A program made the position numbers and the translations under genes. A DNA stretch of 64,000 nt from Escherichia phage vB_EcoM_G37-3. Positions 5,780-62,716 of the stretch are shown here, one piece after another (within the stretch, counting starts at the first letter, position 1; every line of letters begins with the position of its first letter). The DNA lies in sequence record MK327941.1. The stretch is one strand, 5' to 3'. The notes beneath the pieces are model-generated. The model did no database searches. It was not told the origin of the DNA and was given only the letters and a program-made list of their open reading frames with translations.

Positions 5780-6990
5780 TTAAGCAGGATGCGTTTCACG
5801 AATGCGTAGAACTCGCTCTAACGTCGCTCGGTCCAGCTTATGTAACTCTTTGGAATGATACATGAAACCATTGCGAGATTCCATGCAAGTGCAATCACTA
5901 TATTTTTCTTCCGCTGCCGCGATCGTCTCCAGATCTTTGGCGTACTTGCTGGTTGAATAAACTTCTCGATCACGCCACTCTAACCCAGCCTCATTGAATT
6001 TAACAATCTCGTCAAATACCCACCATCCAATGTAGATAAATGAAGTTTTGCGCCACGGGATCGGGTGTACGTAACGAAACATTTTAACAACTTCCATTGA
6101 ACATTTTCGGCTTGTACTTGCTGCAACTTCTACTGTTTCATCTTCGATCTGTTGATATAGTTTAGCAACACACCAGAATTTGGCTGTGTCATCGTAAGTA
6201 GCACTCTCTTTGAACAGATGACCGTCTGGCATGATAGAAAATCCTTCCAGTGCTTCGCCGACCTCACTACCGATTAGAGTCGGTGACGGTTGCCCTTCGC
6301 GCTGCAAATACCAGTTATATTTGATCGTCAATTAGGCATACCGCTAGAATCGCCTACAATGTCCTCTGACACAACATAATTAAGTGATATCTCATTACCT
6401 AGTGCCACGGTCTTTGATTCCACCACATCCTGATCTACGTTCATTGTTGCCAGCATGATTTTAGTCGATGCGCTAGCGGCTGAATCTTCCGACTCGCCCC
6501 ACTTTTACAGTATACACGCCGTTTTTATCTGCTGTAAATTCTTGGATCGTAATATCCTTTTTTGTGTCTATAACGTCATCGCCCTTACTCCAACTATAAT
6601 GTAGTTCATAGTTGTCTGCTGGAGTCTTCCCACCAGAAAAATTGACTGTTGCATGTAATTCTACGTCTGTTTGTGATGATACGTAGAATGCTGCGGTTCG
6701 GTGATATTTACGATTAATGCAGCTTCTTCCATGAGGAAAACTTCAGATTCTACTGATGTCATCGTATCGGTATCTTGTACCGTTACTTTATAGCTACCCG
6801 CATTTTCACTTGTTGCGTCTGCTACAGTTAGCGTAGCTGTGCTATTTTCATGCGGTTGGTCGTCTTTTGTCCATGTATATGTCAAATTGCTGGGTAATGG
6901 TTCGTCACCCGCTACAGTCGCCGTTAAGGTGAAACCATCTCCAGCAAGAAAACATCTTTTGTTAGATTGTATTGATACTGTGAAAGCCAT
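5780..6990 (-). pseudogene. hoc: hoc (highly immunogenic outer capsid protein), disrupted by frameshifts
   Basis: N-terminal Ig-like domain (MAFTVSIQ..., TYTWTKDDQ, GSYKVTV) and C-terminal capsid-binding domain (YVHPIPWRKTSFIYIGWWVFDEI...ESRNGFMYH) both match T4 Hoc but lie in different frames; at least three frame changes near 6661-6742, about 6490 and about 6335. Confidence 0.75.
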
Positions 6991-7085
6991 ATAAAGCCAC
7001 TCCCATCGAAAATCCGAATTTAATTAATTGAAATAGTTGATTGTCATCAACCAGATAACCATTGCGAGATTCCAATACATGAGTA

Positions 7086-7250
7086 TTAGAATAGTGATGC
7101 AACGAGGCCGAAATAGTATCGATCTCGTCTGGGTATTTGTTCTGCTATAAAGTCTGCTGTACTAACAACAATCTTTAACAGAAGTGGATGACCAACGGAG
7201 CCATAAACCGGATCTTCTGTTTGATGTAATACATTGATTTTGTTAGACAT
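7086..7250 (-). CDS. Small hypothetical protein (54 aa)
   Basis: ATG at 7250 preceded by GGGAGA RBS. Confidence 0.4.
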   Translation of the reverse strand: MSNKINVLHQTEDPVYGSVGHPLLLKIVVSTADFIAEQIPRRDRYYFGLVASLF

Positions 7251-7330
7251 GTAGTTCTCCCTTTTTAATTGCATAACGGAACTACAATTAAAATTATAAC
7301 AAATATTTCACAACTTTTATCACCCAAAAA

Positions 7331-8056
7331 TTACTTGAGTGTGTGGAATTGGCTATGTTTAGTCTCTCGCACCTTGACAGACCCATCGCGTTTGATATAA
7401 TAGATCAGTGACTTGAGGGTGTCGTGTACATACGCGTGTGGGAAACGCTCTGGATACTTCTTCCAATCTGGAGTATTAACGATCCAGTCGAAAATCCACC
7501 ACGGGCAGGAGTAGTAACCACGACCGCCACCGATCAAACAAATGGTTGGACGGAAACCAGTAAGATCGCAAAATGAATCAGTGTCATGTGCAGGAGAACG
7601 ATGTTCGGCTTCGTCAGAGAAAATGTTTGCTACCGGAGATTTCACTTTAACTTCCGGTGCTTCTTCAACATCTGACTTAACTTCTTCGACCACTGGTTCA
7701 ACTGCTGGAGATTCTTCTTTTGTTTCTTCAATGACGATCTCAGGTTCTTTCATTGCTTCAACCAGAGACGGATCAACTTCGTCGAATACTACTTTATCAT
7801 CTGCGGTGTCTGCTGCCAGAATAAGATCGTTAATACTGGTTCCTTCTGCCGGAGTTTCTTCTTCCATTTCGGAAGCCAGTTTAGTTAATTCGGTTTCTAC
7901 GAACTCGATCATGTTCTCTAGTGAGAACGTCTTTTTGACCTTAATATCAAATTGTTTTGCGTAGTCCGCTAATTCTGTTTTAGCGGTTTTCTGTGCTTCT
8001 TTGTCGTCGGACGCCGCAATAGCGCGGAGTTCTTCGAAATATTCTTTATCAAACAT
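7331..8056 (-). CDS. inh: Inh-like protein (prohead protease inhibitor) with Hoc-type C-terminal domain
   Basis: Acidic middle region; C-terminus CPWWIFDWIVNTPDWKKYPERFPHAYVH resembles Hoc capsid-binding domain; position matches T4 inh. Confidence 0.5.
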   Translation of the reverse strand: MFDKEYFEELRAIAASDDKEAQKTAKTELADYAKQFDIKVKKTFSLENMIEFVETELTKLASEMEEETPAEGTSINDLILAADTADDKVVFDEVDPSLVEAMKEPEIVIEETKEESPAVEPVVEEVKSDVEEAPEVKVKSPVANIFSDEAEHRSPAHDTDSFCDLTGFRPTICLIGGGRGYYSCPWWIFDWIVNTPDWKKYPERFPHAYVHDTLKSLIYYIKRDGSVKVRETKHSQFHTLK

Positions 8057-8082
8057 GTTATTCTCCTGATTGGGGGTGTTTG

Positions 8083-8090
8083 TATAAATA
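8083..8090 (+). promoter_or_regulatory. Late promoter TATAAATA upstream of uvsW
   Basis: Exact TATAAATA about 37 nt upstream of ATG 8127. Confidence 0.5.
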
Positions 8091-8126
8091 TTTGTATACT
8101 GTATTTATTGAGTGAGGCTATTCGCT

Positions 8127-9814
8127 ATGCAAGATATTAAATTCACTTTCTGAACTACTCCCATGTTCAAATTGAATGTAGCGATTCAATTTTATTAGAA
8201 ATGCGAGATTATTTTAGTTTTGAAGTCGAGGGAGCGCGGTTTCAAAAAAGATTTAAGTATGGTGGATGGGATGGGCGTATTCGTCTTTTAGATTACAACG
8301 GAAAGCTGCCAATCGGTCTAACTAAAACCGTGGGAATCTTCGCTAAAAATATGGGCTATAGCGTATGGGTAGATCCTCGCTTATTCGAAAAAGAACAAGT
8401 TACAGAAGAAGAAATTACAAAATGGTGTAATAACTTAGAATTATATTCCGGTGCTAACAGGATCACCCCTCATTGGTATCAATCAAAGGCCGTCTTTGAA
8501 GGTATTTCATCATAAACGCCGTATGTTAGTTTTGCCTACGTCCGCTGGTAAATCTGCGATTGCTTGTATGTTGTCTCGTTGGTACTTAGAGAATTACGAA
8601 GGGAAAGTGTTGATCATCGTTCCTACCACGTCGCTAGTGCTGCAAATGCGTGATGACTTTGTTGATTATCGCCAGTTTCCTTATGAAGCAATTCATACTA
8701 TCATGAGCGGTACTAGTAAACACGTAGGTGATCGCCTGATCGTTGTTAGTACGTGGCAATCTGCATGTAAACAACCTAGTGAGTGGTTCCAACAATTCGG
8801 GATGGTTATTGTTGACGAATGTCACAAGGCCACTGCTAAAACCTGCTAAACATCGTTACTGATATGGATCATTGTCAATTTAAGATCGGCATGACTGGTT
8901 CCCCTCGTGACGGGAAAGCTAACATGATGCAGTATGTCGGGCTTTTCGGTGATATTTCTAAGATCGTGAGTATTGACCGCCTGATGGAAGAAGGGCAGGT
9001 GACAAAACTGAAAATTAACTGTCTTTTCCTTCGTTATACCGATGAGGAATAGCGCGGTTAAGGGGCGAGAATATGCGGAAGAGATCAAGTACATTACATC
9101 TAACCCACGACGAAATAAGTTTGCTTGTAATTTGGCGCTAAAACTCGCTAAGAAGGGCGAAAACGTATTCCTGATGTTCCGCAACACTAAGCACTGAAAA
9201 TTAACTGTCTTTTCCTTCGTTATACCGATGAGGAATGTAGCGCGGTTAAGGGGCGAGAATATGCGGAAGAGATCAAGTACATTACATCTAACCCACGACG
9301 AAATAAGTTTGCTTGTAATTTGGCGCTAAAACTCGCTAAGAAGGGCGAAAACGTATTCCTGATGTTCCGCAACACTAAGCACGGAAAACTTATGTATGAT
9401 GCGTTACAGAAGGTACACGACAAGGTTTATTATATTGACGGTGGAGTTAAGACAGAAGAACGTGATGAATTTAAGAAATTAGCGGAAGGGGAAACCGGGA
9501 TCATTTGCGTTGCATCCTATGGTGTGTTCTCTACTGGTGTTTCCATCAAGAATTTGCATCATGTTATTTTCGGTCATCCAGTGAAGGAATCAACTATCGT
9601 TCGTCAGAGTATCGGTCGTGCATTGCGTAAACATGGTTCTAAGGATATTGCAACGGTCTGGGATCTTATAGATCATCTGGCGGTGAAGACAAAGAGCAAT
9701 AATGCTAAGAAACAGTTTAGCCACCTTAATTATGCTCTTAAACATGCGCTTGAAAGAATAAAAATTTACAACACCGATCGATTCGAATATGTCACGAAAA
9801 CAATCGAGATTTAA
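8127..9814 (+). pseudogene. uvsW: uvsW (DNA/RNA helicase), disrupted by frameshifts and a tandem duplication
   Basis: Fragments in alternating frames match T4 UvsW (FSFE..G.RF, GWDGRIRLLDY, LPTSAGKS, DECH, GSPRDGKANMMQYVG, VFSTGVSIKNLHHV, TVWDLID); frame changes near 8140, 8505 and 8840, plus duplication at 9009-9382. Confidence 0.8.
9009..9382 (+). repeat. Tandem direct duplication inside uvsW (186 bp + 188 bp)
   Basis: Copies 9009-9194 and 9195-9382 identical except for a 2-nt GT indel; copy 1 reads GAG GAA TAG (stop), copy 2 reads through; junction at GAAAA microhomology. Confidence 0.9.
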
Positions 9815-9857: not shown

Positions 9858-10094
9858 ATGATTAGCTTTAAACGTTTTTTGGTTGAGGCCGCTATTGACG
9901 GTTTCATGCGTAAGATTTATTCTTGTAATACTATCGAGGGATTAAATGAACTTGAGGCATATTATGAGAAGCGCAAGAAAGAAACAGAATTGAAACCTGC
10001 TGATGATATTTCGATCCGTGATGCCATCGCTGGACGCCGTAAGCAATTGGAAGCGGACAACGAGCCAGAAGAGGAGCCGGAAGAGGATTTTTAA
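9858..10094 (+). CDS. uvsW.1: UvsW.1-like small acidic protein
   Basis: 78 aa directly downstream of uvsW; GGAG RBS; position as in T4. Confidence 0.5.
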   Translation: MISFKRFLVEAAIDGFMRKIYSCNTIEGLNELEAYYEKRKKETELKPADDISIRDAIAGRRKQLEADNEPEEEPEEDF

Positions 10095-13763: not shown

Positions 13764-14281
13764 TGACAGAAACTAAACCTATGTTAAAATTTGTTGTTCC
13801 TGTAAAAAAATTAGAGATAAACGGGAAACATATCAAGATCCCAAAAATGGGGATTAAGCAACATCGATTATTAAAAGATGTTCGTAGCTGTGATGAAACA
13901 TTAAAGATTCTTCTTGATTCAATCTGTCCTGGGTTAAACGCTGCCGAGTCTGAATTGGTTATGCTTAACCTTTGTGCGTTTAATGGTAAGTGTCTGGAAG
14001 AAAAAGATGGTCTTAAGCTGTCTGATGTGTATATTTGTACAGAGACTGAATTTACTTTAAATGGTAAAGTCTTTAAATTTAAAAATCCAATGTATACTTC
14101 TGACCCCATTATCGATGACGCTGATTTCTTGAGTCATCATTATCACGATCCTAGTGTAGACTTCCATGATTTCCCAGCTTTTATTATGGATTGGGCTACA
14201 GGATTAAGAAAAACTATTGCACTGGATACACCGGAAGGTACTATCTATGGTGGAATTAACATATTGGATCGCCTATCATGA
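13763..14281 (+). CDS. 28: Baseplate hub distal subunit gp28
   Basis: 172 aa; synteny; ATGA stop/start overlap at 14278-14281. Confidence 0.7.
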   Translation: MTETKPMLKFVVPVKKLEINGKHIKIPKMGIKQHRLLKDVRSCDETLKILLDSICPGLNAAESELVMLNLCAFNGKCLEEKDGLKLSDVYICTETEFTLNGKVFKFKNPMYTSDPIIDDADFLSHHYHDPSVDFHDFPAFIMDWATGLRKTIALDTPEGTIYGGINILDRLS

Positions 14282-14305
14282 ATGACGCATTAACATCATT
14301 TCGGG

Positions 14306-16009
14306 ATGCGCAAGGAAGCGGAAGAAAACCCGATTGATAAACTTAACAAATTAGATAAACTTGATTCTATTGATAATTTGCAAGCCGCTACCGAATTGGT
14401 GGCGGAGACAGTGGAACAAAAATCTAATGAAGTTGTTGGTGCGGTAGAGGATAACACCGCAGCCAATGAATTGACGGCAGAAAATACACAATCTACCGCT
14501 GGCAATACCCAAAAAACTTATGAAGAATTGCAAAAACTCAATAATTTCTCTTCTCAGATGAATGAGAAATTACGTGGTTTTGGTGTTATGATGGAACGTA
14601 GATTTGGTGTTGTCAGTAAAATGGCTAGCGGTATTGGTGCGATTGAAGAAGCATTGAAAAAACCGGAACAACCGCAAACAATGCCATCACCTCAGCCAGT
14701 TTTGCCTACTGTGCCGGAACAGCCTAATAATGACAACTATCAAGGTCTTCCAAAGAAAAAACCAGATGTTGAGGAACGGAAGAAAAAGAACGCCACAGAT
14801 AAGCGTAATGCAGATTCTATGGAAAATCTTCTTAAAGTTGTTCGTGGAGGATTTAAAGAAACCATAGGTATCTCTAATAAGGTCTTAGGGATGTTATTTA
14901 AGATCACTTTGACCGCTATGGCAGAAGCCGCAAAATGGGGTGCTATTTTGATGGGTATTGTTTTTGTCATTGATACCCTGATGGTTCATTTCAGATATTG
15001 GAGCGATTTATTCGAGACAAAGTTCAGTGAATTTATGGATAAGGCCGGAGAATGGGCTGGTCCTATTAGCGATATTTTAACTACTGTTCGTCAGGTTCGA
15101 GATTATTGGTCTAAAGGCGAATATGGGGAGTTAATTAAATCTCTTGTTATGGGTATTGGTGATGCATTCTATAAAACCTTTATCCAACTTGATCGAATTA
15201 TCACTACTGGTATTGCTAAAATTCTTCGCATGATCCCTGGTATGGGTGATTATGCCGATAAGTTAGAATATGGTGCTTTAAAATCTGCTGTCGCTCAAGG
15301 CTATACGCCAAATGAAAGAGAACTCGAATTAATGGATAAGATCGAGTCTGAACACGAAGAAGACAAATATGGAGAGCGCACAGGATGGACAGGAAAAGCC
15401 CGTGATATTGGCGAAGCTATTGGGGATTCTATTAAGGATAAAGTTAACGAAGGTCTTGTTAGTCTGGGCTGGAGAGATCAAAAGGATGTTGACGCAGAGA
15501 AACGACAAGAAGAATTAAAACGCGGGGAATATAAGTCTGTTTCTGCTGAACAACGATCTGCTAGTCGTAAACTTAGAATTAAAAGCGAGGGCGCGATCAA
15601 TAATATTAATGAAGTTATGGAGAATTTGAGCGGTGACTATGACAAAGAAAGAATGGGAGAGTTGAAAAAGGATATTGATGTTTACCGTGAGCAAGTTCAA
15701 GATCCTACATTAGTTGAAAGTGATCGTTCTCAGTTAGAGCGTCTTATTGAAAAATTTGATGAGATGTATGCTGATAAAACTAAGGGTGTGGTTCCAACTA
15801 ATCCTGTTCCTGCAACTGAAACGGAAACAGCAAAACAAGCGGAACGTACTGAACAAATGCAGAAACAAGCTGCAATCCAGCAACAAACGACAAATCAGAC
15901 CTCAAACGTAAATAATACACAAATTGTAACAAACAATAGAACTATTAAACAGGGTGCACCAACAACTAGAATTGATGCTCCCGGTACAATTAATATGGGG
16001 AACTTTTAA
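14306..16009 (+). CDS. 29: Baseplate hub / tail length determinator gp29
   Basis: 567 aa; synteny; start uncertain (coupled ATG at 14278 is in another frame). Confidence 0.75.
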   Translation: MRKEAEENPIDKLNKLDKLDSIDNLQAATELVAETVEQKSNEVVGAVEDNTAANELTAENTQSTAGNTQKTYEELQKLNNFSSQMNEKLRGFGVMMERRFGVVSKMASGIGAIEEALKKPEQPQTMPSPQPVLPTVPEQPNNDNYQGLPKKKPDVEERKKKNATDKRNADSMENLLKVVRGGFKETIGISNKVLGMLFKITLTAMAEAAKWGAILMGIVFVIDTLMVHFRYWSDLFETKFSEFMDKAGEWAGPISDILTTVRQVRDYWSKGEYGELIKSLVMGIGDAFYKTFIQLDRIITTGIAKILRMIPGMGDYADKLEYGALKSAVAQGYTPNERELELMDKIESEHEEDKYGERTGWTGKARDIGEAIGDSIKDKVNEGLVSLGWRDQKDVDAEKRQEELKRGEYKSVSAEQRSASRKLRIKSEGAINNINEVMENLSGDYDKERMGELKKDIDVYREQVQDPTLVESDRSQLERLIEKFDEMYADKTKGVVPTNPVPATETETAKQAERTEQMQKQAAIQQQTTNQTSNVNNTQIVTNNRTIKQGAPTTRIDAPGTINMGNF

Positions 16010-25983: not shown

Positions 25984-26292
25984 TTATAAAGTTTGACCGT
26001 TGTTTTTCGCGTAATGCTGAATGCGTGCTTGATCTGCTTCCGCTGGTGATAGATTCCATGCGATCACTACAACTTCTGACGCATCATGATCATTATCACT
26101 TACCCAATGATTATGATTCATACAATTGTTTGCTATCGCGTGAGCAAATGATCTCATTACCGGAGACGTATAATCATAGTAACGGATTTTCAGATTTTCA
26201 TCAACGTACAAGTAGATCGTATACGGCTTATATTCAGTAACCAGTAACAGACAGTTACGCAATTCTGGGAAAATCTTTTTAGTTAATTTCAT
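25984..26292 (-). CDS. HxHW-family small protein, member 3
   Basis: NHNHWVSDNDHDASEVVVIAWN; start at ATG 26292. Confidence 0.5.
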   Translation of the reverse strand: MKLTKKIFPELRNCLLLVTEYKPYTIYLYVDENLKIRYYDYTSPVMRSFAHAIANNCMNHNHWVSDNDHDASEVVVIAWNLSPAEADQARIQHYAKNNGQTL

Positions 26293-32590: not shown

Positions 32591-32631
32591 AATTTTCTTA
32601 CCTCTTCAATTCATCTCAATAGTAAATTATT

Positions 32632-33242
32632 TTATTTCGCGACCTTTGGATTTCGCCGCAGACCGGAATGTATTTGCGCTATACAACAATAAGAAACATT
32701 AAACATATCAGCTATAATTTGCTTCTTAACTTTTCCTTTAAGCCGCATTATTTCTTCGACTTGCGCATTTGTCAGTTTTGCCCGTGAGTGGTTTTCACCG
32801 ACATTGTTATTGAGTCCAGTTCTAAATGAATGTCTCATATTTTCTAGTAAGGTTACTATTTCTAGATTCCACACATAATTGCAGGTTTTACACCATTGAT
32901 GTGATTAACCTCAAGTCCGGTAACGTCTCCTAGAAATGCATTTGCTACAAGTCGATGTATCTTTTCGGCTTTAACTGAGATTTTACCATTGTCTTTTTGT
33001 TTTGACAATGTTGAATAATAATATCCATATCGGTCTAAAATTGGTTTTATTATTTTACCAACACGTTTTTGTTTTACGAGCTTAATATTACCGGGAGAAA
33101 CTTCTCTATAAAATTCGATACTTCGGTCAATAGATCTCAATCTACCATAATTAGAGATTTCATACCACGGATAACCTACAGCTTGTCTCCATTCTTCCGG
33201 CGCTGGTAATATGATATTATCATCTTTTGTTTCCATTGTCAA
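32632..33242 (-). pseudogene. HNH homing endonuclease (NUMOD4 + HNH_3), frameshifted
   Basis: N-terminal ORF has YEISNYGRLRS and HRLVANAF...VNHINGVK, then stops; next frame continues NLEIVTLLENMRHSFRTGL; single frame change near 32870. Confidence 0.6.
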
Positions 33243-39363: not shown

Positions 39364-40523
39364 AGATATTTCCCGAATCGGTTGTAGTCGTCGTCTGTTA
39401 AATCGGTATTAACCTGAGATACCAGATACATAATCTCTACTTCTTGCGCTGCATTCTGTACTTCGTCAGAGTTCAACCATTTACGCATCCACGGTAACGG
39501 ATGACGACGAACACTAAACGGGCTTTTCAGTCCGGCAGCACGCATACGGGAATCTGCCAGGTATTCTACATAGGTTTTCAGAATTTCCGGTGACAGGTTA
39601 GGAATTGCCCCCATTGCGAATAGGTGGTCTACCCATTCTTTTTCTTGCTCGACAACATCCAGAAAGATTTTCGTTGCTTCACCTTCAAGTTCTTCCGCAA
39701 TCTGTTTCCACTCATCACCATCAACCCCCGTTTGCCATTGACGAATAATGTATTGTGTGCCTTTTAAGTGAAGTTGTTCATCACGCGCAATAAATTTCAT
39801 GATCTTCGCGTTACCTTCCAGTAAACCACGTTCGGCAAAGCTGAAAGTACATGCAAAGGACACATAAAAACGAATTGCTTCCAGTGCATTGACGCAGTGT
39901 GCACACAGATAAATCGAAGCCATCAGATCTCGTTTTGTATCTTCAAAAAATCTTCTTGCATCATCTAATGCTGTCTGGTCGTCTCGTTCTTCCCAATAGC
40001 GGAGATCTTCTTTTGCATTCTCATACTTACGAATCCAATAAAGAACATCATCATAATATTTCCCGATAGATTCCGCTCGCTTCATGATAGCAGGGTTATC
40101 GATGATCTGGTCGAACTCACTAGCCGGATCAATGAAACAGTTACGCATAATGTGTGTATAGCTTCGGCTATGAATCGTTTCGCTGAATGTCCATGTTTGC
40201 AACCATGTATCGAGAGTTGGATCAGATACAATTGGACCAAATACACGGGCTGGCGCTCTGCCTTGAATCGAATCTAGCAAAGTTTGATAACGTAAGTTCT
40301 CGGTGAAGAAACGCTTTTCAACATCGCTCATATTCAGATATTGAATGCGGTCAGTTGCAAGTGAAATCTCTTCTGGACGCCAGAAAAATGACAACTGCTT
40401 CTCGATCAACTCTTCAAATACTTGATGACGCTGAATATCATAACGAGCAATCCCTAAATCACTACCAAAAAACATCGGTTCGGTCATAATATCAACATGT
40501 TCACGATTAAATACGCTCATCAC
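39360..40523 (-). CDS. nrdB: Ribonucleotide reductase small subunit
   Basis: 387 aa; R2-type ferritin-like motifs; synteny. Confidence 0.85.
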   Translation of the reverse strand: MMSVFNREHVDIMTEPMFFGSDLGIARYDIQRHQVFEELIEKQLSFFWRPEEISLATDRIQYLNMSDVEKRFFTENLRYQTLLDSIQGRAPARVFGPIVSDPTLDTWLQTWTFSETIHSRSYTHIMRNCFIDPASEFDQIIDNPAIMKRAESIGKYYDDVLYWIRKYENAKEDLRYWEERDDQTALDDARRFFEDTKRDLMASIYLCAHCVNALEAIRFYVSFACTFSFAERGLLEGNAKIMKFIARDEQLHLKGTQYIIRQWQTGVDGDEWKQIAEELEGEATKIFLDVVEQEKEWVDHLFAMGAIPNLSPEILKTYVEYLADSRMRAAGLKSPFSVRRHPLPWMRKWLNSDEVQNAAQEVEIMYLVSQVNTDLTDDDYNRFGKYL

Positions 40524-41062
40524 TATTCTCCATCAATTTTGTTTATATTGTAACCCATGTTGCCTTTTTCTATTTCTCTCAACGCAACTGAATTAAACGC
40601 TCTTGCCGCATCTTGTTCGCTATCAAATCTCCCTATATGAACACTCTTTCCTTGTATATTAATATGAACTAGCCATCTATTTGTGTACTTACACCAACTT
40701 ACCCCGTTATATTTTGATGATGCACCTTTAAATTTAGTTCTGTTTCGATTGTTGACAGAATAATCAGTACCTCGTAAATTTTCTATATGATTGTTCAGCT
40801 TGTTTCGGTCGATGTGATCTATAACTTTAGGCTTATGCCCGTGAAACATATGATAAATCACATGATGTATTAACTTCTTTCTATTGTCTACTGTTAGTTG
40901 AAGATATCCCCCATTATGTGGACTTCCAACCTCATCACCAACTTTAACTTTATTGCTTGTTGAAACCTTTCTGAAAAGTTTACCATCTTCGTATTTAAAT
41001 AGATAATGATACCTTTCGTAAAGTATTCGGTCCTCTTCCGTATAATGTATTACCTCATACAT
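40523..41062 (-). CDS. HNH-AP2 homing endonuclease (mobE-like position)
   Basis: HNH (HHVIYH...IDHIDRNKLNNHIENLR) plus AP2 domain (YNGVSW...GRFDSEQDAARAFN); located between nrdA and nrdB. Confidence 0.65.
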   Translation of the reverse strand: MYEVIHYTEEDRILYERYHYLFKYEDGKLFRKVSTSNKVKVGDEVGSPHNGGYLQLTVDNRKKLIHHVIYHMFHGHKPKVIDHIDRNKLNNHIENLRGTDYSVNNRNRTKFKGASSKYNGVSWCKYTNRWLVHINIQGKSVHIGRFDSEQDAARAFNSVALREIEKGNMGYNINKIDGE

Positions 41063-41079
41063 AATATTTTACTCACTTT

Positions 41080-41245
41080 TTAACACAAAAGAACTTAGTA
41101 TTTCTGTTAACTTCGCTATCCTGCTGCAATTCCTGCACAGCTTCAAAACAATTTTGATGTGATGAAAACTCTACGCTGGTAACAGTTCCTTTATTATATA
41201 CGCCTACGCTAACGGAAAGCAATAACCATACAGTAGCCATTATCC
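41080..41245 (-). CDS. Small hypothetical protein (55 aa)
   Basis: ATG start; hydrophobic N-terminus MATVWLLLSVSVGVY. Confidence 0.3.
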
Positions 41246-41407
41246 TACAACCTCAAAGCATTTATCATCAGGAAGAATAGCCCATTCTACGCCATATTCA
41301 TCCTCAACGTAGTAGCAAGCCCCATCATGTCGAGCATCATATACATCACCGACAACAAAGCTATCAGCTAGCTAAAAATCTACAGCAACACATTTTAATT
41401 TGGTCAT
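41243..41407 (-). CDS. Small early ORF with in-frame TAG at codon 12
   Basis: Early promoter and GTGAGGA RBS precede ATG 41407; MTKLKCVAVDF-TAG-LADSFVVGDVYDARHDGACYYVEDEYGVEWAILPDDKCFEVVG. Confidence 0.3.
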
Positions 41408-51611: not shown

Positions 51612-52193
51612 TCATCCTCTTTTTGGAAAATTTAAATAAGCATACTCGCCAACTATTTCATGTGCTGCACGGTCATAAGCCTTAGCCGCCTCAACTTCTG
51701 TCTCAAAGTATCCTAGATGTATATTCTTTCGATTGATAACAATATACGCCTTCCACGGCTTTTTCTTGCTTGGTGATAATGATACACCTTTATATTTGCT
51801 ATGGCAAGCCTTTTTCTTTGAGACGTTAAACTGATTTTGCTGTTCGGTTGCTTCTCTCATGTTTGACGGTCTATTGTTAGTTTTGTCTTGGTCTATGTGA
51901 TCTATTCGTTCAACCTGAGTACCATACTCTAAAAACCAGACAACTCTATGTACAAACAGATTAAGTTTATGACCATTGTTGTAAAATGTAAAGTATAAAT
52001 ATCCTTCTTTATGGAGACATACCCTTACCACATCACCTTTTTTGTATATGGACCCTTCTTTTCGGAATCCAGCAGCTACAGAATCCTTTAAATGGTATAA
52101 TATTCCATCGACATGATAGAATCTACCTTTTATCGCTTTCTGTGTCTCGATATCCCAAAATTTTGTTTTTGCCACAACAAACACCTCACACAA
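51612..52193 (-). CDS. HNH-AP2 homing endonuclease
   Basis: HRVVWFLEYG...IDHIDQDKTNNR (HNH) and YKGVS...GYFETEVEAAKAYD (AP2); between rnh and gene 34. Confidence 0.6.
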   Translation of the reverse strand: MCEVFVVAKTKFWDIETQKAIKGRFYHVDGILYHLKDSVAAGFRKEGSIYKKGDVVRVCLHKEGYLYFTFYNNGHKLNLFVHRVVWFLEYGTQVERIDHIDQDKTNNRPSNMREATEQQNQFNVSKKKACHSKYKGVSLSPSKKKPWKAYIVINRKNIHLGYFETEVEAAKAYDRAAHEIVGEYAYLNFPKRG

Positions 52194-61770: not shown

Positions 61771-61809
61771 TTGGAAAGCGGGGAGAAAATCCCCGCTAAG
61801 GATTCTTAT

Positions 61810-62106
61810 ATGGGATATTGGGTCAGTAGTGAAATTAATACTAAAATCGATGCTTTAAAATGGCATGTATTTGATATTCCTAACGGCTATGGTACTGCTC
61901 GCGCTGGCGTTGCTGTCATGCGTCATAATGCTGGTGGTGGATGGTCTGATGCACATATTAACGTAGATGGTTTGACCGTTGCTCGTCGTCGTGGTGGGTC
62001 CAATTGGGGATCTACTATAAATTCGTTTGTTCCTGCTGGCTGTACCGTCTCCTTTGGTTTAGGGGGTGAAGGTGGTGTTGAATATTTTAAATTCATGGAG
62101 TTTTAA
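61810..62106 (+). CDS. Glycine-rich small protein, tandem paralog A (FDIPNG family)
   Basis: ATG 61810 with AAGGA RBS; FDIPNGYG, NAGGGW, TVSFGLGGEGG. Confidence 0.55.
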   Translation: MGYWVSSEINTKIDALKWHVFDIPNGYGTARAGVAVMRHNAGGGWSDAHINVDGLTVARRRGGSNWGSTINSFVPAGCTVSFGLGGEGGVEYFKFMEF

Positions 62107-62108
62107 TT

Positions 62109-62414
62109 ATGGCTGGATGGATAAATCAAAGAATGTCAAACGCTATTAGTATTTGGGCTAATGGTGGATATTTTGATATCCCTAACGGTTGGGTCACTGA
62201 TTCATGCGGAATTGTTTTTGCTCATATGGAAGCCATTAACGGTGCTGGTGATCTTGGTTCTGAATTGGCTGTAAATGGATTGATTGAATCAGGTCATCAC
62301 GCTGGTAATGCCGGAAGTTGGGGCGCTAGTTCTTTAGTTGGCGCTGGTGCTACCGTTAGCTTTACATTGGGTAAAGGTAGTTTGCATTATTTCAAATTCA
62401 GGAGAATGCACTAA
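62109..62414 (+). CDS. Glycine-rich small protein, tandem paralog B
   Basis: GGAG RBS; FDIPNGW, ESGHHAGNAGSWG, TVSFTLG. Confidence 0.55.
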   Translation: MAGWINQRMSNAISIWANGGYFDIPNGWVTDSCGIVFAHMEAINGAGDLGSELAVNGLIESGHHAGNAGSWGASSLVGAGATVSFTLGKGSLHYFKFRRMH

Positions 62415-62716
62415 TGGCATTTTGGGTAGATGGCGCTTTGGGGAATAGGGCGGGTAAAGCAAATCAAGGATGGTTTGATATTCCTAACGGTTGGACAGCC
62501 GACGCTTTCGGGACTATTTCATTTTCCGCTCATTCTTCCGGTGGTGGCGGCGGTGACTCTGAATTGTTTATTCATGGTTTTTGTGTTTCTGGAAGCCATA
62601 AGGGTCATGATTGGGGACAGATCCATTCTTGTATTGCACCGCAAGGGGCGGTAATTACCGTTAGCACAAATAGGGGGGTCGCTCATCTTCGTTATAGACG
62701 TTTGAGCAACCGCTAA
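62414..62716 (+). CDS. Glycine-rich small protein, tandem paralog C
   Basis: AGGAGA RBS; FDIPNGW, SSGGGGGD, SGSHKGHDWG. Confidence 0.55.
   Translation: MAFWVDGALGNRAGKANQGWFDIPNGWTADAFGTISFSAHSSGGGGGDSELFIHGFCVSGSHKGHDWGQIHSCIAPQGAVITVSTNRGVAHLRYRRLSNR

Follow-up and report, generated by a model that had tools for sequence, protein, structure and literature searches.

Probable pseudogenization of hoc and uvsW in the T4-type Escherichia phage vB_EcoM_G37-3

In the 64,000 nucleotides (nt) of Escherichia phage vB_EcoM_G37-3 analyzed here (record MK327941.1; this whole stretch is referred to as the window), the genes hoc and uvsW carry eight frame-disrupting lesions, three in hoc and five in uvsW. 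The initial annotation, made from the letters alone, had counted at least six, and this claim is borne out. All eight are private, meaning that they are absent from the aligned relatives, of which 16 to 19 were available at these sites. The reading that we favor, with a probability of roughly 0.65, is that this lineage has genuine pseudogenes in hoc, uvsW, and an HNH homing-endonuclease gene, with a tiny open reading frame (ORF) as a probable fourth. That the lesions are present in the living phage, and why constraint was lost, is what we infer.

The window belongs to Krischvirus (the RB49 group of T4-type phages). Across positions 5780–9814, where hoc and uvsW lie, it is 98% identical to GEC-3S, Phi1, and ECD7, and the gene order gp23, gp24, hoc, inh, uvsW, uvsW.1, uvsY, gp25–gp54 is that of the annotated relatives. 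Features and lesions are listed in Table 1.

Table 1. Coordinates of hoc, uvsW, their lesions, and other genes discussed in the text (window positions; aa, amino acids).
Feature	Position	Strand	Description
hoc pseudogene	5780..6990	-	404 aa when intact in relatives; here residues 1–101 in frame, then three frame changes
hoc lesion 1 (translation order)	6687–6688	-	1-nt deletion (AAA>AA); Hoc frame ends after residue 101
hoc lesion 2	6499..6501 (~6499)	-	2-nt deletion (CACAC>CAC)
hoc lesion 3	6330–6331	-	1-nt deletion (AAA>AA on the + strand); private versus all aligned relatives
Small conserved ORF (54 aa in GEC-3S)	7086..7250	-	Intact; 100% identity over 54 aa
inh (inhibitor of prohead protease), 241 aa	7331..8056	-	Intact, one frame; 99.6% identity over 241 aa
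uvsW pseudogene	8127..9814	+	500 aa when intact in relatives; here at least five ORF fragments
uvsW lesion 1	8139–8141	+	1-nt deletion (AAAA>AAA) at codon 5; stop after 8 residues
uvsW lesion 2	8505–8507	+	1-nt insertion (TT>TTT)
uvsW lesion 3	8838–8841	+	1-nt deletion (AAAAA>AAAA)
uvsW tandem duplication (188 nt), copy 1	9007–9192	+	Extra 2-nt (TG) deletion between 9050 and 9051, giving TAG at 9050–9052
uvsW tandem duplication, copy 2	9193–9380	+	Undamaged; continuous with the C-terminal 206 residues
uvsW.1 (78 aa)	9858..10094	+	Intact; 100% identity; exact protein in 148 blocks of public assemblies
gp29 (tape measure/baseplate hub)	14278..16009	+	Private 2-nt deletion (CGCG>CG) between 14301 and 14302, codon 9
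HNH (NUMOD4 + HNH_3) homing-endonuclease pseudogene	32630..33242	-	Two private 1-nt deletions
55-aa conserved ORF homologue (RB49p233/phi1p233 family)	41243..41407	-	Private nonsense at codon 12 (41372–41374)

Remnants of hoc and uvsW

Hoc is an Ig-domain capsid decoration protein, which in T4 is needed neither for capsid assembly nor for laboratory infection. The gene in the window was identified by its position, downstream of inh and on the same strand, which agrees with the annotated hoc of GEC-3S, Phi1, RB49, and ECD7. A tblastn search with GEC-3S Hoc gave a match with 98% identity to the annotated protein that is broken into frames -2, -1, -2, and -1. Because of the three frameshifts, an unbroken ORF of about 404 aa reaching through the capsid-binding C-terminal part is lacking. 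What remains is an N-terminal fragment of 109 aa (ORF 6661–6990), which matches Ig_3, PKD, and I-set and corresponds to the first Ig-like domain. As read from the sequence, full-length Hoc would not be made, and the capsid is expected to be undecorated because only one Ig-like domain is left and the capsid-binding C terminus is lost. A 3.5-kb public contig, MAVA01000043.1, matched the hoc region both ways (1–1309 forward and 3501–2337 reverse) and is a fold-back chimera.

The uvsW locus occupies its conserved place in the order inh–uvsW–uvsW.1–uvsY, and its fragments match UvsW_N (PF21241, 6e-29), ResIII/DEAD (PF04851 and PF00270, 6e-18 and 2e-12), and Helicase_C (PF00271, 7e-10), which is also the domain set of intact relatives. 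The pieces recovered by tblastn with UvsW fall in different frames, the native start now encodes MQDIKFTF followed directly by a stop codon, and no single ORF of about 500 aa with Walker A and motifs II–VI is found. By descent, this is uvsW, yet as it stands in the record it cannot encode UvsW protein. We infer that the helicase cannot be made, because translation ends after eight codons and the motor is incomplete in every later fragment.

One may ask whether the frame changes are functional, that is, whether programmed ribosomal frameshifts or split genes still yield active Hoc and UvsW. The only feature pointing that way is that the frame changes sit at short runs. Stops follow within a few codons of each shift, the 188-nt duplication with its internal TAG could not be read through, and the lesions are private, every relative having a single 404-aa Hoc ORF and a single 500-aa UvsW ORF. 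Five recoding events in one gene would, to our knowledge, be unprecedented, and we find the idea hardly conceivable.

The 188-nt duplication is frameshifting on its own. Its junction lies in an imperfect microhomology, AC[T/G]GAAAA, with 7 of 8 positions matching, a level that only 0.36% of random junctions reach. Documented rearrangements in T4 are flanked by 3 to 13 nt of “minihomology” (PMC8262927). The duplication could alternatively stem from two contig ends that were abutted without merging a 188-nt overlap. The damaged copy 1 adjoins the left side, where lesions are frequent, and the clean copy 2 the right side, which has none, and the 7-of-8 match could then be a contig end that is 8 nt longer and contains one base error. 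This origin is disfavored by the junction microhomology, which is seldom that strong at arbitrary junctions.

None of the hoc and uvsW lesions was found in relatives, a comparison that took in eight GenBank genomes across the interval, IMG/VR and metagenome contigs, and 10 further independent assemblies, some of them Logan assemblies of raw runs. In all of these 10 assemblies, Hoc has 404 or 408 aa, UvsW 500 aa, and gp29 577 aa. The duplication junction had no match in viral, metagenome, and genome collections, and searches of E. coli genomes and plasmids were likewise negative. Exact ORF fragments, Inh, and gp37 led to no sibling record either; the collections covered were phages, plasmids, complete E. 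coli genomes, IMG/VR, metagenome contigs, GTDB genomes, and an exact-protein index. At the protein level, UvsW is uninterrupted, with at least 98% identity, in 57 of 58 Krischvirus records, the lone exception being phage TB34 (OX001802.1), which is described at the end of this article.

A separate observation concerns a uvsW homologue in bacterial genomes. In about 32 complete E. coli chromosomes and several bacterial-isolate contigs, a prophage that is inserted at ycdX, next to a serine recombinase, encodes a UvsW-like DEAD/DEAH helicase (e.g., NZ_CP042903.1, 2918694–2920184). The gene mostly shares 55 to 80% nucleotide identity with Krischvirus uvsW, and a patch of about 740 nt, equivalent to approximately 8940–9680 of the window, shares 95 to 100%. 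This pattern suggests that the resident prophage and a lytic T4-type phage have recently undergone gene conversion.

Rates of change in constrained and unconstrained DNA

Private substitutions and indels (insertions or deletions) were compared at equal depth, that is, over the stretch for which at least 15 relatives could be aligned (3.6–15.9 kb of the window). Intact genes (7,766 nt) have eight private substitutions, six synonymous (S) and two non-synonymous (N), and a single indel, that at gp29 codon 9, which corresponds to 0.13 indels/kb. Non-coding DNA (1,083 nt) has no private substitution and two indels (1.8 indels/kb). For hoc and uvsW together (2,694 nt), the numbers are eight substitutions (4 N and 4 S) and eight indel events (3.0 indels/kb). 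Hence, the substitution rate in hoc and uvsW is 2.9 times that in intact genes (P = 0.03), and the eight private substitutions compare with 2.8 expected under constraint (P = 0.008) and 8.7 expected if both genes had been neutral for the whole branch. The indel density is similar to that of non-coding DNA (P = 0.73) and differs from that of intact coding DNA (P = 1e-4). Both genes thus behave, on the private branch, as unconstrained DNA for substitutions and indels alike. The initial annotation had left the choice between relaxed selection and a locally error-prone assembly, and these data identify the former as the better of the two.

The depth of sampling matters for this result. A first analysis with three to five references had favored an artefact, the apparent counts being 8 S and 2 N in uvsW and 5.3 private substitutions/kb in hoc and uvsW versus 9.5 for average coding DNA. 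Deeper sampling overturned this outcome. The rejection of relaxed selection had been wrong because most of the “private” changes and non-coding indels were shared with relatives not yet sampled, which is a methodological caution: judging changes private against too few relatives gave the opposite, wrong answer. The references used beyond the first three, which lack some of the window genes, were ECD7, PHB13, E26, ELT4, KFS-EC, and PTE-Eco09. Their addition brought to light a third gene with multiple lesions, the HNH homing-endonuclease gene.

We propose that selection ceased to maintain hoc and uvsW, or acted against them, near the start of the private branch, and that both genes would afterwards have gathered mutations at the rate of unconstrained DNA. 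Two types of event would account for the lesions: slippage during replication of short mono- and dinucleotide repeats (-1, +1, and -2) and a single microhomology-mediated tandem duplication of 188 nt. Since hoc and uvsW are both dispensable for plaque formation in T4, a phage with these lesions would still be viable.

Relaxed selection had been illustrated with a laboratory-adapted lineage, and this example is not specifically supported. Silent-site divergence on the private branch, taken from intact genes, is approximately 0.32%; silent change of about 0.3% is above that of usual laboratory passage, although unsampled relatives may inflate the figure. The ratio of 6 S to 2 N in intact genes indicates efficient purifying selection on the same branch. 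Moreover, many genes that are dispensable for T4 in the laboratory (alt, nrdA, nrdB, td, frd, pseT, denA, and many small ORFs) are intact in the window.

A real but sudden event, in the form of a frameshift-specific burst of indels over about 3 kb instead of gradual neutral decay, was also considered. Such an event might consist of error-prone synthesis during repair of a double-strand break, of acridine-type mutagenesis where topoisomerase acts, or of escape from repeated attack by a nuclease or CRISPR system. Eight lesions in 3.1 kb, all of the slippage type, at an indel-to-substitution ratio near 1:1 would fit such a burst, and the T4-type recombination machinery joins ends at minihomologies. 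However, no burst is needed because the indel density in hoc and uvsW equals that of non-coding DNA on the same branch at equal depth. In addition, inh is untouched between the two genes, and the HNH gene at 32.6 kb, a separate locus, has the same pattern. Enrichment of the type I-E CRISPR protospacer-adjacent motif (AAG) or seed at the lesions was not found (3 of 7 versus 2.65 expected). Taken together, we regard a burst as improbable.

Two other candidates were rejected. Genome-wide mutagenesis followed by selection does not agree with the lack of frameshifts in about 25 kb of other dispensable coding DNA (P ~ 8e-8). Mosaic or chimeric haplotype switching at the lesion sites turned out to be the ordinary Krischvirus mosaic, with nothing special at these positions.

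Distribution of lesions across the window

The earlier conclusion that the lesions are not random errors spread over the genome stands. When about 450 reference ORFs were scanned against the window, about 390 had uninterrupted counterparts, and those interrupted were non-annotated ORFs, except hoc, uvsW, and the 55-aa ORF. Compared with the rate in other coding DNA, the clustering in hoc and uvsW has a P value of about 3e-15. Rescans against 5 to 19 references revealed no uncompensated frameshift inside any gene other than those described here. Indels that seemed to be present in nrdB, gp34, gp36, and the holin gene cancel out within a few bases and reflect alignments of diverged patches; the proteins are intact.

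The cluster had been taken to be confined to 5780–9814, which is not the case. In the HNH gene, the loss of 1 nt from a T5 run (~32885–32889) splits the frame, and its second 1-nt deletion (~32632) lies in the last codons. This gene is intact, encoding 203 aa, in ECD7, E26, PHB13, ELT4, and KFS-EC, and the region compared spans 753 nt in ten relatives versus 751 in the window. The 55-aa ORF has its nonsense mutation, and a small ORF at 25999 has a lesion within its last eight codons. The remaining case is gp29, which is essential in T4. From its native start, a stop is now reached after 19 codons, and the in-frame ATG of Met11 at 14306, which is 5 nt past the deletion, opens a 567-aa ORF that matches the Pfam family T4_Tape_measure. 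Each coding lesion in the window thus concerns a losable gene or a tolerated terminus, and none lies in the body of a constrained gene. The statement that the long essential genes are uninterrupted therefore holds for gene bodies and fails for gp29, which is part of the gene 25–54 block that had been listed as intact. A simple split between essential and non-essential genes does not describe the pattern either, given that the dispensable nrdA, nrdB, td, frd, alt, pseT, and denA are intact and an essential gene is lesioned at a tolerated position.

This distribution is informative with regard to a local sequencing or assembly artefact, in which case the phage would have intact hoc and uvsW and the consensus of the record would be wrong over a stretch with poor support. 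Such errors could come from low coverage, from a gap closed with few long or single-pass reads, or from the unmerged contig ends discussed previously. Errors should strike a gene whatever its function, yet every constrained gene in about 50 kb of coding DNA is spared, and inh and orf173, which sit between hoc and uvsW and thus within the supposed bad stretch, are both intact and clean. The sole lesion in an essential gene is located beside a rescue ATG. Furthermore, a locally error-prone assembly does not predict lesions of the same type in a dispensable homing-endonuclease gene 23 kb away, nor does it sit well with the excess of private substitutions in hoc and uvsW or with the strength of the junction microhomology. 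We therefore consider an artefact unlikely, although it is an explanation to be taken seriously in view of the observations that follow.

Several observations weigh against genuine pseudogenes, and a number of these are what an artefact would produce. Each small lesion shortens (in most cases) or lengthens a short repeat, which is typical of nanopore, flow-chemistry, or low-quality Sanger consensus sequences, albeit unspecific because real slippage looks alike. In each of the four 1-nt deletions in hoc and uvsW, the base lost from the + strand is an A. The dead genes have nearly one indel per substitution (~1:1), versus ~1:4.4 in the older non-coding polymorphism of the window. No independent assembly has any of the lesions, and their presence in the biological phage is deduced from the sequence record. 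The substitution counts are small (8 versus 8, P ~ 0.01–0.03), and the dead genes, with 4 N to 4 S, have an N:S ratio that is, at these small numbers, neither clearly neutral (~3:1; P = 0.13) nor distinct from the 2 N to 6 S of intact genes (P = 0.61). Because hoc and uvsW are more polymorphic among relatives than their neighbors, the “private” counts may be inflated. Also, alt, nrdAB, td, frd, pseT, denA, and other genes dispensable in T4 have remained intact here. Finally, of 2,312 phage records with a homologue, 2,305 have UvsW at least 80% covered by a single unbroken piece, which makes a lasting uvsW-null lineage unusual.

It is also conceivable that the lesions arose in cloned or amplified DNA, for example, when a gap was closed by PCR or via a plasmid clone in which a toxic uvsW was inactivated in E. 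coli. The lesions do fall within an amplicon-sized stretch, in vitro template switching can yield a microhomology-mediated duplication, and a UvsW-type helicase can be toxic if expressed in some E. coli backgrounds. Polymerase errors, on the other hand, are mostly substitutions, largely non-synonymous, and only four private non-synonymous changes are seen here. Toxicity would be relieved by a single lesion and is not known for hoc, and the lesions in the HNH gene and gp29 would be left unexplained. This scenario appears very improbable.

As to the genes neighboring hoc and uvsW, the three private substitutions in inh are all synonymous, and the small ORF at 7086..7250 has a private +1 variant in its ribosome-binding-site region (~7255). 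Upstream, the gp23–gp24 spacer (1751–2130) has private indels at 1751, in the terminator after gp23, and at ~1992 (+1/+2). The latter position is that of the tiny annotated ORF phi1p161.1 (45 aa), of which the window has no intact version. In GEC-3S, gp27 (baseplate hub) is annotated with 260 aa versus 369 aa in the window, Phi1, RB49, and ECD7, an in-frame difference of 327 nt.

The window also contains free-standing HNH_3 + AP2 homing-endonuclease genes at 40523–41062 and 51612–52193 (both on the - strand) that are absent from GEC-3S, Phi1, and RB49. The first is directly upstream of nrdB, whose N-terminal part beside the insertion (40245–40293) has diverged over a short patch (K>R, SAA>ARV), such as a co-conversion tract would leave; the 55-aa ORF homologue (41243–41407) adjoins this window-specific HNH-AP2 insertion. 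The second, which is intact, lies between rnh-side ORFs and gp34 and is 100% identical to that of PTE-Eco09. The distal part of gp37 (59.4–61.8 kb) is unlike every reference fetched, and the check for lesions covers the window outside this part. After gp37 comes a 945-nt stretch (61771–62716, + strand) that is absent from the first three references and whose three ORFs, each of about 100 aa, gave no Pfam match.

Consequences and comparison with known systems

If the lesions are real, the phage is a ready-made natural Hoc/UvsW double null in the RB49 group, and a T4-type phage can last for a while although it lacks a helicase retained by nearly all its relatives. Such a phage would be predicted to plate on hosts with UvsW-sensing retrons and to be sensitive to UV and hydroxyurea. 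Should the gp29 deletion be real as well, gp29 would need internal initiation or re-initiation and would miss 10 N-terminal residues. For curation, hoc and uvsW should be annotated as pseudogenes only after read-level confirmation.

In T4, uvsW (dar) mutations suppress gene 59 defects. No lesion was found in gene 59, which is intact in the window, and a link between gene 59 and the loss of uvsW was dropped for that reason.

Loss of uvsW may instead represent escape from a host defense that senses UvsW, such as a type III-A3 retron. T4 escapers of Retron-Eco11, a retron that is triggered by UvsW helicase activity, were viable and all carried frameshifting uvsW deletions (PMC12746101). By analogy, a retron-type escape is plausible for uvsW; a comparable lead for hoc was not found. 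The more far-reaching proposal that a naturally persisting lineage dropped UvsW as a liability, namely as the trigger of a helicase-sensing defense of this kind, with Hoc lost in parallel, is one that we offer tentatively and think rather doubtful. If true, it would be a natural case of defense-driven loss of a core replication/repair gene, not a laboratory escape mutant.

The uvsW (dar) nulls of T4, including the Retron-Eco11 escapers, resemble the window in that frameshifts truncate the superfamily 2 (SF2) helicase in its N-terminal motor domain and the phage is viable. For the escapers, a helicase-sensing defense makes the loss advantageous; for the window, the link to a retron is one of analogy. 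The T4 mutants are laboratory isolates, whereas here a Krischvirus has five uvsW lesions, which would therefore point to a longer history without the gene than that of the T4 escapers. Hoc-minus T4 is similar in that Hoc is dispensable and the truncation takes away the capsid-binding C-terminal part. That strain, however, carries an engineered deletion, whereas the window has three spontaneous frameshifts in an isolate that is natural or of unknown history.

TB34 provides a comparison within Krischvirus, being an independent phage with 1-nt deletions of its own in inh and uvsW (equivalent to window positions 7932 and 8244), both of which split the annotated genes. Unlike the window, it has one lesion per gene, at other positions, and an intact hoc. 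Phage SAP, which is 99.96% identical to TB34, has an intact uvsW, and the TB34 frameshifts are thus part of the differences between these two phages, which differ in DNA modification without a reported genetic lead (PMC13390438).

The frameshift clusters left by indel-prone sequencing share short-repeat indels, a deletion bias, and few substitutions with the lesions described here. Such errors strike regardless of function, whereas the window lesions spare every constrained gene in 64 kb. Frameshift decay is the usual fate of homing-endonuclease genes once fixed, and the HNH gene at 32.6–33.2 kb resembles the decaying free-standing homing-endonuclease genes of T4-like phages. Located outside the interval flagged initially, it serves as an internal control, with the same lesion type at another unconstrained locus. 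The favored reading, pseudogenes of the lineage, is ordinary pseudogenization of accessory or conditionally dispensable phage genes, unusual only in that a helicase conserved across essentially all T4-like phages would have been dead long enough to acquire five lesions.

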